Positions 35,291 to 54,510 of a DNA stretch of 64,000 nucleotides are shown one piece after another. Below the pieces are notes generated by a model, which was not told where the DNA came from, did not search any database, and saw only the letters and a list, made by a program, of their open reading frames with translations. Made by a program: the position numbers and the translations under genes. Within the stretch, counting starts at the first letter, position 1. Every line of letters starts with the position of its first letter. Source of the DNA: an uncultured bacterium (GTDB taxonomy: Bacteria; UBP4; UBA4092); assembly GCA_964644695.1 (NCBI GenBank), contig CAZXWN010000006.1, forward strand, positions 196 to 64,195, in the 5' to 3' direction.

Positions 35291-35320
35291 TTGACAGAGC
35301 CTCTGGATTCCCTATATACT
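35291..35320 (+). promoter_or_regulatory. Sigma70-type promoter for riboswitch-nrdDG
   Basis: TTGACA-18bp-TATACT, 8 bp before the riboswitch P1. Confidence 0.7.
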
Positions 35321-35328
35321 GACTCAAA

Positions 35329-35512
35329 GTATCGGTTCGCTTTTGTGATTAAAAAGCGTCCCAAGAGGGAATCCGGTGGAATTCCGGAACTGCCCCGCAG
35401 CGGTATTGAGGAACGAACACCGTCATTTAAGCACTGTTCCAGAAGGAATGGGAAGCGACGGTCAATAGTATAAAACCAGAATCAGCCTCTAAGTCCGAAG
35501 ACCTGCCGATAC
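35329..35512 (+). ncRNA. Cobalamin (AdoCbl) riboswitch
   Basis: P1 gtatcgg/ccgatac; core aagagggaatccggtggaattccggaactgccccgcagcggt; GGGAAG; B12-box-like aagtccgaagacctgcc. Confidence 0.92.
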
Positions 35513-35763
35513 AACGCAATTATATTGCGTAAGACGACTTGCAGCCTTCGCGGGAAGGGTCAGGACGAACAGGCCATCAGAAAGATACGCTATATTCTGG
35601 GGACCTCCTCCATCCTGAATTCATTATCCTTTTCCGTACGGTCTGCTCAATATTGCTCGAGGGGAGCAATGTCGTACGGAGTAAGCAGACAGGATATTTC
35701 GCTTCACTGTTATTCCGCGCACGATTCTATTCCTCCCCCGAAATAATACAGGAGAATTTTGCT

Positions 35764-37884
35764 ATGTCAGTACAGGAAAGAATGGAAGCCCCCGGATTTA
35801 CTTCATTAAGCCATGTCATAAAAAGGGATGGCCGTTGTGTTTCTTTTGAGTCAGAGAAAATAACTCGTGCCATACACAAGGCCAGCCGAGTTACAGGTGA
35901 GTTTGGAGAAGATGTTGCCAGAGAGTTGATGAAACAGGTCTTGTTGAAACTGAAGCAATCGTTATCAAAAGAGGCCCCTTCTGTAGAAGACATCCAGGAT
36001 ATTGTGGAAGATATTTTACTTTGTTCGGAATATAAGAAAACCGCAAAAGCCTATATTTTGTATCGTGAGCAGCATCGAAAGATAAGGGATTTAGTCCAGA
36101 AAGCGGATATGGACTTGATTGACAGTTATCTGGATCGATTGGATTGGCGAGTCAATGAAAACAGCAATATGGCCTATTCACTTCAGGGGTTAAACAATTA
36201 CATATCCAATCAAGTCACAGAAGTGTATTGGCTAAACAAGATTTATGATGAACCCACTCGTGAAGCCCATTTGTCAGGCGATTTCCATATTCATGATCTG
36301 GGTTTATTATCCGTTTATTGTGTTGGATGGGATTTACAGGATTTGCTTAGAACAGGATTTAAGGGCGCCTATGGAAAAGCGGAAAGCCGTCCTGCCCGCC
36401 ATTTCCGTTCTGCCTTGGGTCAGATAGTAAATTTCTTTTATACTCTTCAAGGTGAAGCTGCGGGGGCACAAGCCTTTTCCAGTCTAGATACTCTCCTGGC
36501 GCCTTTCATCCGATATGACCAGTTATCCTATAAAGATGTGAAACAGGCTATTCAGGAATTTGTGTTTAATTTGAATGTCCCGACAAGAGTAGGATTTCAA
36601 ACACCGTTTACGAATATCACCATGGATTTGTGTCCTCCCAGGATGTTGTGTGACCATCCGGTGATTGTGGGTGGTGAACTTCAAAAGGAAACCTATGGTG
36701 AATTTCAAGAAGAAATGAATCTTCTTAATAGAGCTTTTTTAGAAGTGATGTCTGAAGGTGATGCGAAAGGAAGAGTCTTCACCTTTCCTATCCCAACCTA
36801 TAACATTACGAGCGATTTTGATTGGGAATCTCCAGATATTGAGAATCTCTGGGAGGTCACTGGCCGATATGGAATTCCCTATTTTTCCAATTACATTAAT
36901 TCTGATATGTCTCCGGAAGATGCACGTTCCATGTGTTGCCGGTTACGGTTGGATACCCGCCAGTTAAATCGAAGGGGTGGTGGATTATTTGGTGCAAACC
37001 CTCTGACAGGTTCTATTGGTGTAGTTACATTGAATATGCCACGATTGGGTTTTGTATCCCAGGACGAACAGGATTTCATTAAGAAGCTGGATCATTTGAT
37101 GGTATTAGCCAGCGCAAGTCTGGAAGTAAAACGAAAGATTTTGGAAGTATTCACAGAGAAGAATTTATATCCATATACTCGGTTCTATTTGAGAGATATT
37201 AAACAACGGTTTGGCTGTTACTGGAAAAATCATTTTTCTACTATTGGACTTGTAGGAATGAATGAGGCTTGTATGAATCTCTTAGGCGTTGATATTGGAA
37301 GCACTGAAGGCCGGGAGTTCTCCTGCAGGGTGTTGGATTACATGCGGAACCGACTGGAGGATTTCCAGGAAGAAACAGGAAACCTCTATAATCTTGAAGC
37401 GACTCCAGCTGAAGGCGCCGGCTATAGACTGGCCCGTCTGGACACGGATAAGTATTCAGAAATATTGTTTGCGGATAATACTCCTGGTACAGAACCTTTT
37501 TATACTAATTCAACCCAACTTCCAGTAAATTATTCAAAAGATATCTTTAAAGTATTAGATCTGCAAGATGAGCTGCAAACAAAATACACAGGTGGTACAG
37601 TGCTGCATATGTTTATGGGTGAATCTGTTTCAGACCCAGCGGCAGTGCGCCAGTTTATTAAAAGGGTTTGTACACAATACAAGTTGCCTTATTTCACGAT
37701 GACTCCTTCATTTTCGATTTGTCCGAATCATGGGTACCTCATAGGTGAAGTGGAATCATGCCCAGAATGTTCAGTTCCAACAGAAATATATTCCCGAGTT
37801 GTGGGATATCTTCGACCCGTTAATCAGTGGAATTTAGGCAAAAAGGCAGAGTTTGCAATTCGCTCCCATTATCATATCGACTAA
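35764..37884 (+). CDS. nrdD: Class III anaerobic ribonucleoside-triphosphate reductase with ATP cone
   Basis: VIKRDG ATP cone, HIHDL, SMCCRL, EATPAE, CxxH..CxxC, glycyl radical RVVGYL; ATG 35764 behind GGAG. Confidence 0.96.
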   Translation: MSVQERMEAPGFTSLSHVIKRDGRCVSFESEKITRAIHKASRVTGEFGEDVARELMKQVLLKLKQSLSKEAPSVEDIQDIVEDILLCSEYKKTAKAYILYREQHRKIRDLVQKADMDLIDSYLDRLDWRVNENSNMAYSLQGLNNYISNQVTEVYWLNKIYDEPTREAHLSGDFHIHDLGLLSVYCVGWDLQDLLRTGFKGAYGKAESRPARHFRSALGQIVNFFYTLQGEAAGAQAFSSLDTLLAPFIRYDQLSYKDVKQAIQEFVFNLNVPTRVGFQTPFTNITMDLCPPRMLCDHPVIVGGELQKETYGEFQEEMNLLNRAFLEVMSEGDAKGRVFTFPIPTYNITSDFDWESPDIENLWEVTGRYGIPYFSNYINSDMSPEDARSMCCRLRLDTRQLNRRGGGLFGANPLTGSIGVVTLNMPRLGFVSQDEQDFIKKLDHLMVLASASLEVKRKILEVFTEKNLYPYTRFYLRDIKQRFGCYWKNHFSTIGLVGMNEACMNLLGVDIGSTEGREFSCRVLDYMRNRLEDFQEETGNLYNLEATPAEGAGYRLARLDTDKYSEILFADNTPGTEPFYTNSTQLPVNYSKDIFKVLDLQDELQTKYTGGTVLHMFMGESVSDPAAVRQFIKRVCTQYKLPYFTMTPSFSICPNHGYLIGEVESCPECSVPTEIYSRVVGYLRPVNQWNLGKKAEFAIRSHYHID

Positions 37885-37897
37885 GGAAACAGAATAT

Positions 37898-38527
37898 ATG
37901 GAAATTGGTGGATTCCTTCCATTCAGCCTTTGTGATTATCCGGGGAAAGTCGCCGCTGTTGTGTTTACTCAGGGGTGTAATTTTCGTTGTCCTTTTTGTC
38001 ATAACGGAGAATTAATCTCTTTAAGAAAGGAAACTCCATCGGAGTATTCTGAAGAATTGATTCTGAGCCGTTTACAATCGCGGTGTCATGTTTTGGATGG
38101 GGTTGTTGTGACCGGAGGCGAACCGACCATTCACCATGATTTATCTTTATTCCTTGAGAGGATTAAAGGAATTGGATTATCTGTAAAACTGGATACAAAT
38201 GGAAGTTGTCCTGATGTCTTGGAGGAAGTGATTCGGTTGAACTTGGTGGATTATATTGCGATGGATATAAAGTCTCCATGGGATAAATACGATTTATTAA
38301 CAGGGATTCAAGCTCCTCTGGAAAACATCCAGCGGAGCTTGAATATTATTATAAAATCTTCCATCCCCAGTGAATTTAGAACTACAGTTGTTCCGAAATG
38401 GCTTGGACCAGAAGACCTGGCGGTCATACAAGGTTATATCCCAACTGGAATTTTATATCGAAAACAGAAGTTTATTCCGACTCATGCCTTCTCGCCAGAA
38501 CTGCGAAATAATCACCATTGTTCGTAA
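37898..38527 (+). CDS. nrdG: Anaerobic RNR activating radical SAM protein
   Basis: DYPGK...GCNFRCPFCHN, GGEPT, KLDTNG; directly after nrdD. Confidence 0.92.
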   Translation: MEIGGFLPFSLCDYPGKVAAVVFTQGCNFRCPFCHNGELISLRKETPSEYSEELILSRLQSRCHVLDGVVVTGGEPTIHHDLSLFLERIKGIGLSVKLDTNGSCPDVLEEVIRLNLVDYIAMDIKSPWDKYDLLTGIQAPLENIQRSLNIIIKSSIPSEFRTTVVPKWLGPEDLAVIQGYIPTGILYRKQKFIPTHAFSPELRNNHHCS

Positions 38528-44124: not shown

Positions 44125-46749
44125 TTAATATTCAGTGTCACTTTTCAGGAATTTGAATTGAAGTACGGAAACAAACACCACCATGGCAAACAGGAACAAT
44201 GCCTGAGCGGAAGCTACTCCGAATTCGAAAAATTCAAATCCGCGACGATAAATAGTCATTACCAGTGGTGTGGTTGCATAGCCAGGACCACCATTTGTCA
44301 TAATGAGGATTTTTTCAAATATCTGGAAAGAGCCAATTGTACCCATGACCAACAGGTAGAGGGTGGTGGGCCGAATCAGAGGCACCGTAATGTTCCACCA
44401 TCGACGAATGGGGCCGGCTCCATCTAACATTGCACATTCGTGGAGTTCTTTAGGGACACGGCCCATGGCAGCCAGGTAGAGAATAACGCCACCACCGGGT
44501 GCCATCAGCATCCCTGAAAGCATAACAGACATTAAAGCAATATCGGGGTCAGTCAACCAACCGACTTTACCGGAGGTCATTTGGACGCACATGGGACCCA
44601 GGGCGCTGAACAGTTTTACATATACAAATTTGATGGAAAGAAGTCCCACTAAGATGCCGGGAATAGAGAGCCAGACAAGATAGTCTTCCCAAGTGGGTAA
44701 TGGTTTATATTTTTGCAGAATTGCTTTGAAGAAATTCATTAGCAAAAACCATACAAAGACGGCGGCTATGATACATGCAATGTAGGGCAATATAAAGAGG
44801 AAGCCTTTGAAGCTGCTATAGAGTATCGGATACGGTTGCAGTGTCTTGACTAGACCGGTTAAAAGCTGATTAAACAAACCAAAGGAAGGATCGAAGATCC
44901 ATTTCCAAACCATGGCAATAATAACACCGGATATAACGCCTGGCAGATAATAGGCTCCCCGGAAGAAAGTCTGGCTACGATTGGATAATGGGGCAATGAT
45001 ACTTGCAAGAATTAAGGAAACAAGGATGCCCTCGGGAACCATGATCAAGGTATAGAAGAGAGTGTTTGGAATAGCGTATTCCCAGAACACTCCATCATGG
45101 ATTACTTTGTTGAAATTAGATAACCCGATGAAATAGGAGCCGTTTACTGAGAATTTTTGAAAAGCCAACAATAGCGAATAACAAACGGGCATCAATAGAA
45201 ATACTGTAAACACAAATAGTGAGGGTGTAATGAAAAGATAGGACCAATAGTGTTTCTTTAACACTTTTTTGGGGTTGGGTTGTTTCAATAGTAATATTGC
45301 GCATGTGCCAAACAATATTAGAAGAATACTAATTGATATCCAGAGCATTGTGGTGCGTGGAGTTAGTCGTGGACCTTTATATTCTGCCTGGGCCGTTCGT
45401 TCCATTTTGTATTGAGCCAGAATATCCCCAACACCTTTTGCTGCTTCGGTCATGGCCTGTTCAATCGATTTACGATTAATCATGGCCTCCTGCATATTGC
45501 GTTGTACAATTTCATCCATCTTGGTACCTTCAGGATGGAAAGGTGGCATGATGACGCTCTCAAAGGCTTTTTGAATTAAAGCAAAATCCTGGTCATTACC
45601 ATAAATATTTCCAATGGATTTTCTGACAGGAATAACACCAGAGTTGTAATTCATCTTTTGAGCTTCGTCGGACCATGCTAATTCTTTCGCCAGTTCAACA
45701 CACAGTGCCAGTTTTTCTGGGGGATCATTTGGTTTGGGCTTGAATATAACGAAATTACCAACACCGGGGGATGCGATTTCAGGTTTGCCCGTTTTGCCGA
45801 TAGGAGGCATGGCGGCTCGGTAATTGACAGGTTTCCATTCACCTTTCACGGCTTCCGGATCTTTATTGAAGATCTTTTCGTTTCGTTTTTTGAGGGAGAT
45901 GATGGCCCATTCTCCCTGGAAGCTTGCTGCAAGTTTTTTGTCTTTGGATAAAAAAGTATTCCAAACGTCTCCTGAAGGATTCAATCCTCCTGCATTGGGC
46001 AAGGCGACTTTGAATGTGTGCTCTAGATCATAAAGTCGGCGGACACCTGACATGAATTCAGGTGTAGTGACTAAACTAACTGTGAGGTTTGGATCATAGA
46101 ACTGTCCCCCATCGGAATAGAGGGCGCTCCAAGCTTCACCTGTGCCAGGCTGTATACCAAATCCGATACCATAACAATCGATGATGCCGTCACCATCACG
46201 GTCAAAGGTGAGTTTTTTCATTTTGGATACAAACTCATCCCACGTCCACATTCCGTTTACGGGAGGTTCAACTCCGCGTTCTTTAAATACATCCAGGTCA
46301 AGTATTGTTAAATAAACAGTCGCGTACCAGGGGAAAGCGTAAACCTTATCTTCGAAGGAGCATACTTTGAGCGCTTGAGCGTTAACATCGGCTCTTTCTT
46401 CAGGAGTTATGTATTTATCCAGAGGGACAAGGACATCTTGCAATACATAAGCGGGCTTCATGGCTGAGCCACAAATGTCTGGGTAGGTCCCTGAAGCTAC
46501 GGAAACATCAAGTTTCTGGTTACCCCGTCCCCAGGATAGCATGGTATATGTTACTTTCACATTGGGGTGTTTTTTCTCAAAGCGGTGGAAAACTTCTTGC
46601 TGCCATAAGGCGGTAGTATCTTTAGGGCGAGGAAAGTCCCATACTTCAATAGAGATTTTGCCGTCATCTTGTTTTTTGCGGCAGGCGGATAATGGCAAAA
46701 GAATTGCCATTGACAATATTAAAACAATCAACAGTTTTATATAGCGCAT
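44125..46749 (-). CDS. Fusion of lipoprotein sugar-binding protein (SBP family 1) and ABC permease (MalF-like)
   Basis: Lipobox LSAC, SBP motifs (GTYPDI, VYAFPWY), then YLFITPS, YYLPGVIS, ELHECAMLDGA in one ORF; ATG 46749. Confidence 0.88.
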   Translation of the reverse strand: MRYIKLLIVLILSMAILLPLSACRKKQDDGKISIEVWDFPRPKDTTALWQQEVFHRFEKKHPNVKVTYTMLSWGRGNQKLDVSVASGTYPDICGSAMKPAYVLQDVLVPLDKYITPEERADVNAQALKVCSFEDKVYAFPWYATVYLTILDLDVFKERGVEPPVNGMWTWDEFVSKMKKLTFDRDGDGIIDCYGIGFGIQPGTGEAWSALYSDGGQFYDPNLTVSLVTTPEFMSGVRRLYDLEHTFKVALPNAGGLNPSGDVWNTFLSKDKKLAASFQGEWAIISLKKRNEKIFNKDPEAVKGEWKPVNYRAAMPPIGKTGKPEIASPGVGNFVIFKPKPNDPPEKLALCVELAKELAWSDEAQKMNYNSGVIPVRKSIGNIYGNDQDFALIQKAFESVIMPPFHPEGTKMDEIVQRNMQEAMINRKSIEQAMTEAAKGVGDILAQYKMERTAQAEYKGPRLTPRTTMLWISISILLILFGTCAILLLKQPNPKKVLKKHYWSYLFITPSLFVFTVFLLMPVCYSLLLAFQKFSVNGSYFIGLSNFNKVIHDGVFWEYAIPNTLFYTLIMVPEGILVSLILASIIAPLSNRSQTFFRGAYYLPGVISGVIIAMVWKWIFDPSFGLFNQLLTGLVKTLQPYPILYSSFKGFLFILPYIACIIAAVFVWFLLMNFFKAILQKYKPLPTWEDYLVWLSIPGILVGLLSIKFVYVKLFSALGPMCVQMTSGKVGWLTDPDIALMSVMLSGMLMAPGGGVILYLAAMGRVPKELHECAMLDGAGPIRRWWNITVPLIRPTTLYLLVMGTIGSFQIFEKILIMTNGGPGYATTPLVMTIYRRGFEFFEFGVASAQALFLFAMVVFVSVLQFKFLKSDTEY

Positions 46750-46841
46750 ATTTATCCCACACAGTTCTATAGTACTAAATGATGTACACAATAAGTTATT
46801 ACCCTAATACTGTATCACGGTTGTCAATTCGAGAGAATAAG

Positions 46842-46895: not shown

Positions 46896-47492
46896 CTAAC
46901 GAGTTACATCATATTTTTCCTGGTCTGCCTGGGTACGAATAATATTGCCTAAAGAGACTGTGCCATTAGATGGATCGTAGTTGGTATAAACACCGTATTC
47001 ACCAAGGAAAGGCGCTGCTTGATTAGAATTGCGGTCAGGACCCCAAGAGTAAATTAACCAGTCACCCGATCGACGGCGTTGGTTTACAAATCCTCCACCA
47101 GCTATACCCTGATATTGCGGAAAATTATAATAAGTATATCGATTGTAAAAAGAGTATGCTAATGAACCTGCTGGTACAGTTAAAAATGGATCAATGGGTA
47201 AGGAACTCAAATATGCCACTGGGGTGGTCAAAAAGGCTGGAATTCTTGAATGGAATGCAGGTTCAGTATAACTATCAGCCCAAGTATAATCTCCCATGGG
47301 TGGATAGGAGTTATTGTCAACATAGTATGATTCTAATCCAGTTGCAACACTTCTCGTTTCACTCTTAACGCGAGAAACTTTAGCTCTTACTTGAGCCGCC
47401 AGGAAGTTTGGAATAGCAATCGCAGCTAAGATGGCAATAATTGCTACGACGATTAACAATTCAATTAGAGTAAATCCTTGTTTTGATGTCAT
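46896..47492 (-). CDS. Type IV pilin / pseudopilin-like protein (copy A)
   Basis: KQG|FTLIELLIVVAIIAILAAIAIPNF cleavage/methylation motif; ATG 47492 behind AAGGAGG. Confidence 0.9.
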   Translation of the reverse strand: MTSKQGFTLIELLIVVAIIAILAAIAIPNFLAAQVRAKVSRVKSETRSVATGLESYYVDNNSYPPMGDYTWADSYTEPAFHSRIPAFLTTPVAYLSSLPIDPFLTVPAGSLAYSFYNRYTYYNFPQYQGIAGGGFVNQRRRSGDWLIYSWGPDRNSNQAAPFLGEYGVYTNYDPSNGTVSLGNIIRTQADQEKYDVTR

Positions 47493-47602
47493 TGATATCA
47501 CCTCCTTTTGCCTGGATTTTAATTCGTTCATTGGTAATAGTCAATTGTTAATTTATGAAATGGCTATTCATGTGAATAGTTAGTCTCATATGGTCTTGTG
47601 TT

Positions 47603-53174: not shown

Positions 53175-53213
53175 AAAATCCCCGGGAGGTGGAAACCTTC
53201 CGGGGATTTTTTT
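53175..53213. terminator. Bidirectional intrinsic terminator
   Basis: aaaatccccgg/ccggggatttt between convergent genes. Confidence 0.8.
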
Positions 53214-53222
53214 GTGTATTGT

Positions 53223-53774
53223 TTATGGACCAAAGCGGAGGATGTCTCCGTCACTGGTGGTTCCATTGGTGGGGTCATACTGTACTTCGCCTTCGTCATC
53301 ATCGACATCCGGTCCATGACTGGCAATATACCACATTCGGTTATTTCCGGCCCCAGGTTGTTCATTGTAATAACTCTCATACACTTCGGCAACACGGTCT
53401 AGCGTTTGATTTCCATTCAGATAATGAAAAGGATGATAGGGAGGTCTGCCTGATTCATTACTCTGGTTGGGGAATACTTCCTTTGTCAAAGATGACAAAT
53501 AGGCCACTGGAGTGGTCAGATTAATGGGCATAAAGAACTCACCTTCAGCTTCGTCATCCAGAGAATTGTTGTACCACGGATAAACATTATTATCGACATA
53601 ATAAGATTCTATTCCGGTGGCGGCGGTCTGCATTTCAGCCTTTACTCTGGAAACCTTACTTCGAACCTGGGCATTCAGAAAATTGGGGATGGCAATCGCC
53701 GCTAAAATGGCGATGATGGCCACAACAATCAATAATTCAATCAGGGTAAAACCCTGTCGAGAACGAGACAACAT
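53223..53774 (-). CDS. Type IV pilin / pseudopilin-like protein (copy B)
   Basis: RQG|FTLIELLIVVAIIAILAAIAIPNF; shares LTTPVAYLSSL and YDPxNGT with copy A. Confidence 0.9.
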   Translation of the reverse strand: MLSRSRQGFTLIELLIVVAIIAILAAIAIPNFLNAQVRSKVSRVKAEMQTAATGIESYYVDNNVYPWYNNSLDDEAEGEFFMPINLTTPVAYLSSLTKEVFPNQSNESGRPPYHPFHYLNGNQTLDRVAEVYESYYNEQPGAGNNRMWYIASHGPDVDDDEGEVQYDPTNGTTSDGDILRFGP

Positions 53775-53783
53775 GGTGATACG

Positions 53784-53855
53784 CTCCTTTAATTTTTGGG
53801 ATTTAGTTTTAATGTGGAAAAGTAATGGTTAAAAACTAAACCGATAAAGGAGGCG
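53784..53855 (-). promoter_or_regulatory. SD-sequestering hairpin (putative translational attenuator)
   Basis: CTCCTTTA (53845-53852, in the PP-L codons) is the exact complement of SD TAAAGGAG (53784-53791); inner stem TTTAGTTTT/AAAACTAAA. Confidence 0.75.
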
Positions 53856-54306
53856 CACGGGGAGATTGCGGGTCATAAAAATACTGGATAAGGGGTTTAT
53901 CAGGCTCAGGAATGAACCAGATGAAAGAAACAAGGGCAACCCATAATAGAGTTAATTCAGCAGGGATGCTGCCTAATAAAACTTGTTTCCCCATACAAAC
54001 CCTGCAGGGTTTGTGGGGAGGATGAGAATGTTCAGCATGGGTGTGGCTGAGGGTGTACCCTATACCGGACAACAGGGTGATGGTTAGTAAAAATAAACTG
54101 ATACAAGACCAAAATATAAAATCGGGAAGATAAGAAAATAAAGAGTTTTCAAAAGTACAAACAGGACAATGTTGAGCCATACCGACCGCCAGGCTTGCAT
54201 GTCCGTGTAATGGAGATATACCAGTCAGGGTAATCAGTGAAAATAAAATCAGGATAATAATAGCGGTTAATTTCTGATTTCTAAAGCTGTTTACTATTTT
54301 GACCAT
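53836..54306 (-). CDS. DUF2946/CruR-like leader protein with two HxH..CxxC modules and C-terminal RAPP
   Basis: HGH..CPVC, HTH..CRVC, hydrophobic segments, ends PQSPRAPPLSV. Confidence 0.75.
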   Translation of the reverse strand: MVKIVNSFRNQKLTAIIILILFSLITLTGISPLHGHASLAVGMAQHCPVCTFENSLFSYLPDFIFWSCISLFLLTITLLSGIGYTLSHTHAEHSHPPHKPCRVCMGKQVLLGSIPAELTLLWVALVSFIWFIPEPDKPLIQYFYDPQSPRAPPLSV

Positions 54307-54463: not shown

Positions 54464-54510
54464 ACGAATCATCCACGGAGCAGCTCGGACCAGGTCCGTG
54501 GATGATTCGT
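54464..54510. repeat. 47-bp palindromic intergenic repeat, copy 3 (perfect 16-bp arms)
   Basis: acgaatcatccacgga-gcagctcggaccagg-tccgtggatgattcgt. Confidence 0.88.

Follow-up and report, generated by a model that had tools for sequence, protein, structure and literature searches.

We describe a two-gene unit on the minus strand of a 64,000-nt stretch of DNA from an uncultured bacterium (GTDB lineage UBP4; UBA4092; contig CAZXWN010000006.1, positions 196 to 64,195; hereafter the window). In this unit a short membrane-protein leader of the CutF/CruR (DUF2946-like) type probably controls, by ribosome stalling, the gene behind it, which encodes a GspG-like pseudopilin with a histidine motif. By analogy with characterised leaders, the best-supported reading appears to be the logic of CutF combined with a CruR-type arrest motif, RAPP.

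The leader is an open reading frame (ORF) of 156 aa at 53836-54306, with the C-terminus YDPQSPRAPPLSV / FYDPQSPRAPPLSV (ending in SPRAPPLSV and the stop). RAPP occurs only once in all six frames of the window, at the C-terminus of the leader, as residues 150-153 of 156, encoded by CGT GCG CCT CCT (53859-53848). RAPP and RGPP are robust arrest cores that are refractory to elongation factor P (EF-P); on the stalled ribosome, RAP-tRNA occupies the P site and Pro-tRNA the A site (PMC10951233; PMC12992588). Proteomes are depleted of both motifs, and the C-termini of small exported proteins are enriched in them (PMC12992588). Borrowing the placement from toeprints of CruR and other RAPP peptides (PMC12992588, PMC10951233), we predict a stall in which the P site holds the first Pro codon (53853-53851) and the A site the next one (53850-53848). 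Upstream of the motif the protein carries two His/CxxC modules, the second of which lies at a fixed distance: C101-R-V-C104, 45 residues, R150-A-P-P153, 3 residues, stop. Comparison with L001, the most divergent close copy (related loci are designated by L numbers), yielded a dN/dS of 0.17 for the whole ORF, 0.25 for the N-terminal 100 codons and 0.028 for codons 101-156, the latter with 9 synonymous changes and 1 nonsynonymous change. Based on these values we concluded that the leader ORF is translated and that its C-terminal third is the most constrained part. At the N-terminus, hydropathy according to Kyte-Doolittle reaches a maximum of 2.45 in a hydrophobic stretch (within residues 10-35) behind K3, R9 and K12, and this region is predicted to provide the export signal or N-in/C-out anchor expected of DUF2946 proteins. 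The topology was inferred by the positive-inside rule. An AlphaFold model of the leader was too poor (mean predicted local distance difference test score, pLDDT, 53.6) to judge clustering of the His and Cys residues.

The codons of the predicted stall site are complementary to the pilin-like gene's Shine-Dalgarno sequence (SD). CTCCTTTA (53852-53845) and TAAAGGAG (53791-53784) form an exact 8-nt inverted repeat, and this anti-SD spans +2 to +9 relative to the predicted P site. Nested within it is a second stem with the core TTTAGTTTT (53840-53832) / AAAACTAAA (53810-53802), exact over 9 nt and extending to 11 bp in the minimum free energy (MFE) structure. Folding of 111 nt at the junction with ViennaRNA gave a two-tier hairpin of -23.8 kcal/mol as both the MFE and the centroid structure; 200 dinucleotide shuffles of the same RNA reached -10.9 ± 2.4 kcal/mol (z = -5.37), none being as stable. 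We also calculated the best duplex that the 22 nt preceding the pilin start can form with a 30-nt stretch beginning at the Arg codon, taking all other 30-nt windows of that locus as controls. With the pairing CUCCUUUA/UAAAGGAG, the stall-site:SD duplex of the window has -16.2 kcal/mol, and 0 of 261 controls were as good. As in SecM, MifM and CutF, the SD of the target is therewith paired to a strand inside the predicted footprint of the stalled ribosome. A role of the hairpin as terminator or attenuator was rejected, since no U-tract follows its 3' arm, and an Rfam scan of the leader-pilin region returned no known RNA family. The spacer between the leader stop and the pilin SD (53792-53835, minus strand) contains zero G in about 45 nt.

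A preliminary description of this DNA, made from the sequence alone, had already pointed to the ORF, to RAPP and to the 8-nt complement between SD and anti-SD, and the coordinates of all three check out on the minus strand. The nested hairpin proposed there was returned by folding, with the energy and z score given above; the gap between the leader stop and the pilin ATG (53774), given there as 62 nt, is 61 nt.

Neither a word-indexed search nor an exhaustive phmmer search of 1.84 billion representatives (E <= 0.001) with the leader recovered anything except its own 90%-identity cluster. This cluster comprises six metagenomic variants, 89-99% identical, all of which keep the leader-pilin pair. 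Among these close relatives both stems are invariant and the apical and internal loops vary; in L001 the Ala codon carries G-to-T, with a matching C-to-A just after the SD, and U-A thereby replaces a G-C pair of the outer stem. More distant relatives were located via the pilin and its neighbourhood. Homologues of the window pilin number in the thousands, with identities of 50-65% for the closest; its relatives lie mostly in metagenome-assembled genomes of Sumerlaeota/BRC1. The window and related contigs share a conserved neighbourhood of Dus, leader, pilin, convergent CBM48, HD, HU and RNase R genes. At the syntenic leader position L085/L086, L087 and L091 carry an ORF of 156-160 aa that phmmer had not detected. 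These ORFs show the same double His/CxxC layout, with HHH...C-x-x-C in L085, L087 and L091 at the position matching the first module of the window leader, and end, respectively, in PVRAPPVFSF, QVRAPPVFSF and PIRAPPAFSF directly before the stop. The orthologues (L085 2467-2937, L087 2454-2936, L091 2947-3417) are 22-33% identical to the window leader, and the adjacent pilin is 65% identical; judged from these alignments, the leader evolves very fast outside its motifs. For homology searches this is a caution, as exhaustive phmmer overlooked orthologues in perfectly conserved synteny. A profile built from 8 leaders recovered 5 proteins.

Elsewhere, the leader in front of the pilin orthologue is shorter and has a single module (L088, L005, L172, where the gene finder had missed the leader, and L173), and leaders ending in RGPP precede more distant members of the pilin family (L092, L093, L102). 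L032/L089/L090 and L084 have a three-gene variant, in which first a gene for a YncE-like beta-propeller and then a pilin-like gene stand behind a similar leader. Taken together, 14 leaders were compared (window, L001, L085, L087, L091, L088, L005, L092, L093, L102, L172, L173, L032 and L084). All 14 have R[AG]PP 1-9 residues before the stop and CxxC 43-47 residues upstream of this motif, and in a 12-sequence alignment the invariant columns are H90, C101, C104, R150, P152 and P153. The retention of RAPP/RGPP and of a downstream prepilin gene in relatives, which the preliminary description had proposed to survey, is thus borne out.

Several further observations concern these loci. Leaders of 156-160 aa (window, L085, L087, L091) resemble an internal duplication of a [helix, HxH, CxxC] module that is present once in the leaders of 93-127 aa (L088, L005, L092, L093, L173), and MAFFT places the short leaders on either module, varying with the sequence set. 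The three-gene variant consists of a CxxC-43-RAPP leader, a secreted propeller of about 375-425 aa and the pilin-like gene (L084 2084-4615, L032 2221-4260, L089/L090); the neighbours in L084 include look-alikes of a CobN-like chelatase and a sulfite/nitrite reductase, read by eye from translations only. The order in L088 (224-3558) is NikR, a pilin-like gene (205 aa), an ECF-transporter-like membrane protein, an FmdE-domain protein, a RAPP leader of 101 aa and the pilin orthologue (61% identical), followed by Nitro_FeMo-Co, BMC and encapsulated-ferritin-like genes. This locus is the sole direct hint at nickel or another metal, rather than copper, as the signal.

To a large part, the pairing between stall site and SD recurs in these relatives. 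Duplexes of -18.5 kcal/mol in L085 (0 of 1253 controls as good) and -18.4 kcal/mol in L091 (0 of 1225) are formed by the same pairing, UUUUCCUUUUAGC/GCUGAAAGGAAAA. L172 has a duplex of about 20 bp and -28.0 kcal/mol (0 of 803 controls); the values for L088 (CUCCUCC/GGAGGAG), L173 (CUUUUUUCCU/AGGAAAAAAG) and L087 are -13.3, -13.0 and -10.7 kcal/mol, with 1.4%, 0.7% and 0.2% of controls as good, respectively. Altogether, six of ten independent lineages pair their SD with the stall region, each by a different sequence and each at a level reached by at most 1.5% of its own-locus controls, and the anti-SD lies on the Pro-Pro-Leu codons in some lineages and on the last codons and the stop in others. 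The pairing therefore does not represent one inherited helix but has been maintained or rebuilt repeatedly. Counted from the predicted P site, the stall-side paired nucleotides in these six lineages begin at positions from -4 to +10, and a stalled ribosome would thus sit over the anti-SD strand or, at a minimum, over its 5' part. The SD:stall-site helix reappears in MFE folds of L085, L087 and L088; those of L005, L084 and L032 show no significant structure. The inner stem of the window is conserved neither in L085 or L087 nor elsewhere beyond its own species group. Covariation of the anti-SD, as suggested in the preliminary description, hence holds as pairing with different sequences in six lineages and is undetectable in four. 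One of the latter, the RGPP-leader locus L093, has a perfect 9-bp hairpin (CCGGAAAGG-TTTC-CCTTTCCGG, 2340-2384) directly 5' of the pilin SD GGAGG, which may represent a different read-out structure.

Table 1. Features of the leader-pilin unit (positions in the window; segment and module boundaries in leader residues).
Feature	Position	Strand	Remarks
Leader ORF; predicted membrane protein of three helices, two His/CxxC modules, RAPP-LSV-stop at the C-terminus	53836..54306	-	
Hydrophobic segment 1, about residues 13-29, after K3, R9, K12; predicted N-in signal-anchor	54220..54270	-	Kyte-Doolittle; low-confidence AlphaFold 2 (AF2) helix
First sensor module (putative), H34-G-H36...C47-P-V-C50 (HGH...CPVC, residues 34-50)	54157..54207	-	Invariant in close relatives
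Hydrophobic segment 2, about residues 60-83	54058..54129	-	Kyte-Doolittle; AF2 model
Second sensor module (putative), H88-T-H-A-E-H-S-H-P-P-H98-K-P-C101-R-V-C104 (HTHAEHSHPPHKPCRVC, residues 88-104)	53995..54045	-	
Hydrophobic segment 3, about residues 109-132	53911..53982	-	Kyte-Doolittle; AF2 model
RAPP arrest motif (putative)	53848..53859	-	R[AG]PP invariant, 14/14 leaders
Anti-SD CTCCTTTA, overlapping the Pro-Pro-Leu codons	53845..53852	-	Outer stem continues 5' via GTGCGC to 53858
Inner stem, 5' arm GGTTTAGTTTT, covering last codons and stop TAG (53838-53836)	53832..53842	-	
Inner stem, 3' arm AAAACTAAATC	53800..53810	-	
Pilin SD TAAAGGAG, 9 nt before the ATG at 53774	53784..53791	-	Sequestered in outer stem
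Pilin-like gene, 183 aa; prepilin leader MLSRSRQG, then FTLIELL	53223..53774	-	GspG/PilA-like N-terminal helix and small globular domain with the C-terminus YDPTNGTTSDGDILRFGP
H114-P-F-H117-Y118 motif of the pilin	53421..53435	-	
Bidirectional intrinsic terminator closing the leader-pilin unit, common to the convergent CBM48 gene	53175..53210	.	16-bp stem; T-runs on both strands

We then compared the leader with DUF2946 (PF11162), the family of CruR. The window leader matches with 12.1 bits (E = 0.34; residues 30-153, profile 13-117 of 117; gathering threshold 23.7), the match stops on the second Pro of RAPP, and the CxxC of the second module (C101-R-V-C104) falls on the CxxC region of the profile. 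DUF2946 was the only Pfam family matched by more than two leaders: 7 of 12 matched it, with a best score of 21.0 bits (L093, E = 6e-4) and further scores of 16.6, 15.6, 14.4 and 10.7 bits, and every match runs to the last position of the profile (117 of 117) and, in the leaders, almost to the C-terminus that holds R[AG]PP, stopping a few residues short of it at most. The spacing between CxxC and RAPP in DUF2946 is 45 ± 1-2 in more than 2000 proteins (PMC9426467), and the window leader carries CxxC in two copies, a C-terminal RAPP and a 45-residue ruler. The relation to DUF2946 for which a profile search had been suggested earlier is therefore visible in the recurrent match and in the ruler and not in the scores, all of which stay under 23.7 bits. 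We refer to the leader as DUF2946-like, which on its architecture and motif geometry it appears to be, and not as a demonstrated member of the family.

The downstream gene product belongs to the pilin/pseudopilin superfamily. Its N-terminus, MLSRSRQG|FTLIELLIVVAIIAILAAIA, matches PF07963 (E = 1.3e-9) and TIGR02532 (E = 2.8e-9) and has the features of type IV pilins and pseudopilins of type II secretion systems, i.e., a leader Gly followed by F-T-L-I-E with Glu at +5 and a hydrophobic helix. Models for GspG, ComGC and Myxococcus PilA match this helix, all far under their equivalog cut-offs; for TIGR01710 (GspG) the score is 46.7 bits, where 88.85 are required, and the match is confined to the N-terminal 66 residues. 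A Pfam scan of the approximately 20 larger ORFs of the window revealed no gene of a pilus or secretion machinery. A profile of 41 pilin homologues matched solved type IV pilins and GspG in the PDB over residues 9-76 only. The AlphaFold model (pLDDT 86.8) shows a long N-terminal helix and a small alpha/beta head, and its fold weakly matches the EpsG/PulG pseudopilins (TM 0.55-0.60 on target, E >= 0.14). An assignment to DUF1559/HX9DG was rejected: PF07596 (SBP_bac_10) and TIGR04294 were not listed at E <= 1, and the C-terminus (YDPTNGTTSDGDILRFGP) lacks H-x9-DG. With 183 aa the protein also seems to be shorter than DUF1559 proteins typically are. Based on these results we concluded that the gene encodes a member of an undescribed subfamily. 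The window harbours a paralogue (46896-47531, minus strand, 211 aa) with a nearly identical N-terminus and neither a RAPP leader nor the H..HY motif described below; it lies upstream of an 888-aa solute-binding/permease fusion (44125-46791) and was used as an internal control.

The only histidines of the window pilin are H114, H117 and H153, the former two within an H..HY motif. We surveyed this motif in 165 pilin-like genes with enough upstream sequence from the fetched loci, 91 of which have a YDPTNG-type C-terminus. A leader with CxxC...R[AG]PP ends within 350 nt upstream of nine of these 91 genes. H..HY is present in eight of the nine leader-linked proteins and in none of the 82 leaderless ones (Fisher p ~1e-10, uncorrected for phylogeny; roughly five or six independent lineages). 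Further orthologues follow the same pattern, L172 and L173 having both H..HY and leader and L174 neither, so that every examined pilin orthologue carrying H..HY has a leader. In the sequences compared, H..HY thus appears to be a signature of the leader-linked pilin subfamily, and the pairing offers a testable hypothesis on the function of some orphan prepilin-like genes in these phyla. A metal site at H114/H117/H153 is a reasonable guess, though no more than that. Whether H..HY pseudopilins bind, buffer or deliver a transition metal through these residues as subunits of a periplasmic or surface fibre, with the leader as a nascent-chain metal sensor tuning their supply, is a tentative and on balance doubtful suggestion. 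If true, it would give a first physiological role to a branch of the huge and unexplained orphan prepilin-like expansions in Sumerlaeota, Planctomycetota and relatives and would extend DUF2946-type sensing past copper, e.g., to nickel, at which the locus L088 with its leading NikR gene hints.

The following course of events is proposed for the unit. The leader would be translated and inserted co-translationally into the membrane until the ribosome stalls on the C-terminal RAPP, its A site occupied by Pro-tRNA; segment 3 would at this point sit in the exit tunnel. In free mRNA the Pro-Pro-Leu codons would pair with the pilin SD and block initiation. A ribosome parked on RAPP would keep the anti-SD (+2 to +9) in its mRNA channel and leave the SD 60 nt downstream free for a second ribosome; upon its departure the hairpin would re-form. 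The duration of the arrest would be set by the nascent His/CxxC modules, most likely via binding of a transition metal, with copper as the candidate by analogy and nickel, cobalt or zinc as conceivable alternatives. The first module is predicted to be periplasmic (loop 1), the second, 45 residues from the stall, to be cytoplasmic just beyond the tunnel exit. We infer that the ribosome arrests at RAPP and that the length of this arrest controls pilin synthesis; that a metal is the signal, and in which direction it turns the switch, we likewise infer.

A number of results weigh against this proposal. The more distant relatives rest on synteny and motifs, because phmmer returned no homologue outside the leader's own 90% cluster. 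The leader's DUF2946 score remains below the threshold (12.1 versus 23.7 bits), and when eight annotated DUF2946 proteins (PMC12992588 supplement) were compared with the leader family by hhalign, the alignment was limited to the 13-residue RAPP tail; some of these eight show the layout helix, His-rich stretch, CxxC, helix, RAPP. The positive-inside rule puts the -45 CxxC of the three-helix leader in the cytoplasm, in contrast to the periplasm in CutF. By the duplex test SD pairing was undetectable in four of ten lineages, L005, L092, L093 and L102, which are mostly GC-rich with longer spacers and must rely on a different read-out or none. No metal-homeostasis gene, including those for copper, was found among the approximately 20 larger ORFs of the window scanned against Pfam, and among the related loci only L088 has a metal regulator (NikR) next to it. 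DUF2946 genes head copper-homeostasis operons, whereas the pilin-like gene is the sole gene downstream of this leader and is followed by the terminator. Finally, the stop lies only three codons past RAPP, and any terminating ribosome would open the hairpin, too.

Because of this last point, plain translational coupling could explain part of the architecture. The leader would then be a real small membrane metal-binding partner of the pilin, the hairpin would serve to restrict pilin synthesis to times of leader translation, and RAPP would merely slow the ribosome without regulated arrest. Coupling is in line with the anti-SD lying within the footprint of a terminating ribosome as well, with purifying selection on the N-terminal 100 codons (dN/dS 0.25) and with three predicted membrane helices, which exceed the needs of a pure sensor. 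However, constraint is tightest in the C-terminal third (0.028), R[AG]PP is invariant in 14 leaders that have otherwise diverged past phmmer detection, and RAPP is strongly avoided in proteomes unless it serves arrest (PMC12992588). Nothing in a mature folded protein would call for a fixed ruler of 43-47 residues from CxxC to RAPP, while regulation by CruR requires it (PMC9426467). We therefore consider ordinary coupling unlikely.

Rather improbable, in our view, is a read-out as in CruR, in which the stalled ribosome would mainly block loading of Rho on the spacer, its release would terminate transcription and the hairpin would be secondary. CruR, the best-studied RAPP member of DUF2946, acts in this way (PMC9426467), the G-free tract of about 45 nt between stop and SD is compatible with a rut-like G-poor tract, and the lineages without detectable SD pairing (L005, L092, L093, L102) need some other read-out. 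On the other hand, the spacer is just 61 nt long and A/T-rich rather than C-rich, and the re-invention of the SD:anti-SD pairing with different sequences in six lineages argues that occlusion of the SD itself is selected.

The leader might also be a monitoring substrate for membrane insertion or pilin biogenesis, following the logic of SecM, MifM and VemP, with a pulling force from Sec/YidC releasing the arrest. The RAPP peptides ApcA, ApdA and ApdP do monitor Sec/YidC (PMC7897499, PMC10987492), the leader starts with a predicted signal-anchor that is followed by more hydrophobic segments, and pilins themselves are substrates inserted into the inner membrane. Yet the downstream gene encodes a substrate rather than a part of the machinery, only about 20 residues separate the end of helix 3 from the P site, so that it cannot yet be inserting at the stall, and the invariant residues are His and Cys (H90, C101, C104) instead of hydrophobic features, the CxxC ruler being the signature of DUF2946 metal sensors; force sensing is thus very unlikely. 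Regulated arrest at RAPP is preferred over coupling, Rho and force sensing because these explain the invariant R[AG]PP and the fixed CxxC ruler less well. A spurious ORF with a fortuitous inverted repeat, as AT-rich intergenic DNA readily provides and as the Pfam match, insignificant alone (E = 0.34), might suggest, is effectively refuted by the shuffles (z = -5.4), the purifying selection on the ORF (dN/dS), the duplex controls and the survey of 14 leaders with synteny and motifs conserved at 13 other loci.

Two further elements were noted in the window. No convincing promoter turned up upstream of the leader in a simple sigma-70 scan. The stretch that separates the leader from the Dus gene contains a near-perfect palindrome (54464-54510) with 23-nt arms that are 87% complementary and exact in the outer 15 nt (ACGAATCATCCACGG/CCGTGGATGATTCGT). 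It is absent in the close relatives L002 and L004, where the upstream context differs, and could be either a Dus terminator without U-tract or an operator of a leader-pilin promoter. Elsewhere, at 35316-35524 on the plus strand, we identified a full-length cobalamin riboswitch (Rfam RF00174, 103.9 bits) directly upstream of the anaerobic reductase NrdD (35539-37884; PF13597, E = 1e-191) and a radical-SAM activase (37853-38527), an arrangement that, as predicted from its parts, puts a B12-independent ribonucleotide reductase under B12 control.

DUF2946-type arrest leaders, in which a metal signal from outside the cytoplasm directly governs translation of the gene that follows, have been recognised recently. 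To our knowledge, studies to date are confined to Proteobacteria and to copper transporters and oxidases as targets. The unit described here would place the same logic in an uncultured non-proteobacterial lineage, with an unusually clean anatomy in which the anti-SD lies inside the stalling codons.

Its closest counterpart in mechanism is CutF of Rhodobacter capsulatus (cutFOG, DUF2946-like), also a leader that is small and exported, carries a Cys metal motif and has a proline stalling motif at its C-terminus (PMC9973294). CutF and its target likewise share a stem-loop that shields the target SD until stalling frees it, and CutF acts in cis and must sit immediately upstream (PMC9973294; bioRxiv 10.1101/2025.02.05.636593). 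The two differ in that CutF has CxxxC, an EF-P-relievable PPP, a cleavable signal peptide and a multicopper oxidase as target, whereas the window leader has CxxC, a RAPP of the kind that was EF-P-refractory in tested cases, three hydrophobic helices with a duplicated His/CxxC module and a pseudopilin-like target; in addition, only in the window does the anti-SD lie within the stalling codons themselves. In layout the leader equals CruR (Bp2923) of Bordetella pertussis, the founding RAPP member of DUF2946: CxxC-45-RAPP-3-stop (PMC9426467), with an N-terminal export signal and as the first gene of its operon. In CruR, RAPP is required for downstream expression, and arrest was demonstrated by toeprinting (PMC9426467; PMC12992588). 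CruR differs by its Rho-dependent termination read-out across a GC-rich spacer of 162 nt and its targets, a TonB-dependent transporter and a PepSY protein, and it passes the Pfam threshold for DUF2946, which the window leader does not. The statement in the preliminary description that CruR and CutF both use an SD hairpin hence applies to CutF and not to CruR, which relies on Rho (PMC9426467; PMC9973294). The polarity also differs between the two: metal prolongs the stall and turns the target on in CutF, and relieves the stall and turns the target off in CruR. The switch proposed earlier for the window, with a ligand releasing the stall and shutting off the pilin, has the polarity of CruR, opposite to that of CutF.

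The earlier view that no pilin was known as a target of such leaders has to be qualified, as prepilin-like DUF1559 genes are already known to be enriched behind RAPP/RGPP upstream ORFs (uORFs) (PMC12992588). Among the top 30 classes, 'DUF1559 domain-containing protein' follows 112 RAPP uORFs (6.5-fold over AAPP) and 116 RGPP uORFs (8.7-fold) (PMC12992588, Fig. 4 source data). Like the window leader, these uORFs (Fujiwara 2025) encode small exported proteins ending in RAPP or RGPP immediately before prepilin-like genes; examples in the supplement have CLIC 43 residues before RAPP, or CxxxxC before RGPP in a His-rich protein (PMC12992588). The class is a table row only, with no analysis of mechanism, hairpin or target there (PMC12992588), and the window pilin differs from it in having no DUF1559/SBP_bac_10 or HX9DG match. 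The CutF paper lists a 'PILIN' signal-peptide class among downstream proteins without discussion (Fig. 7B), and full-text literature searches returned no paper linking arrest peptides with pilins or pseudopilins.

ApdA, ApdP, ApcA, SecM, MifM and VemP share with the unit a C-terminal arrest motif, in several of them of the RAPP/RAPG/RAGP type, and a stalled ribosome that remodels an SD-hiding hairpin; they differ in targeting the Sec/YidC machinery, in release by translocation force and in lacking a conserved His/CxxC ruler. Taken together, stalling coupled to an SD hairpin is a mechanism class already known from CutF. New are the target, an H..HY pseudopilin subfamily outside DUF1559, the duplicated three-helix sensor, the explicit and recurrently re-created pairing between SD and stall codons, and the uncultured lineage in which they occur.

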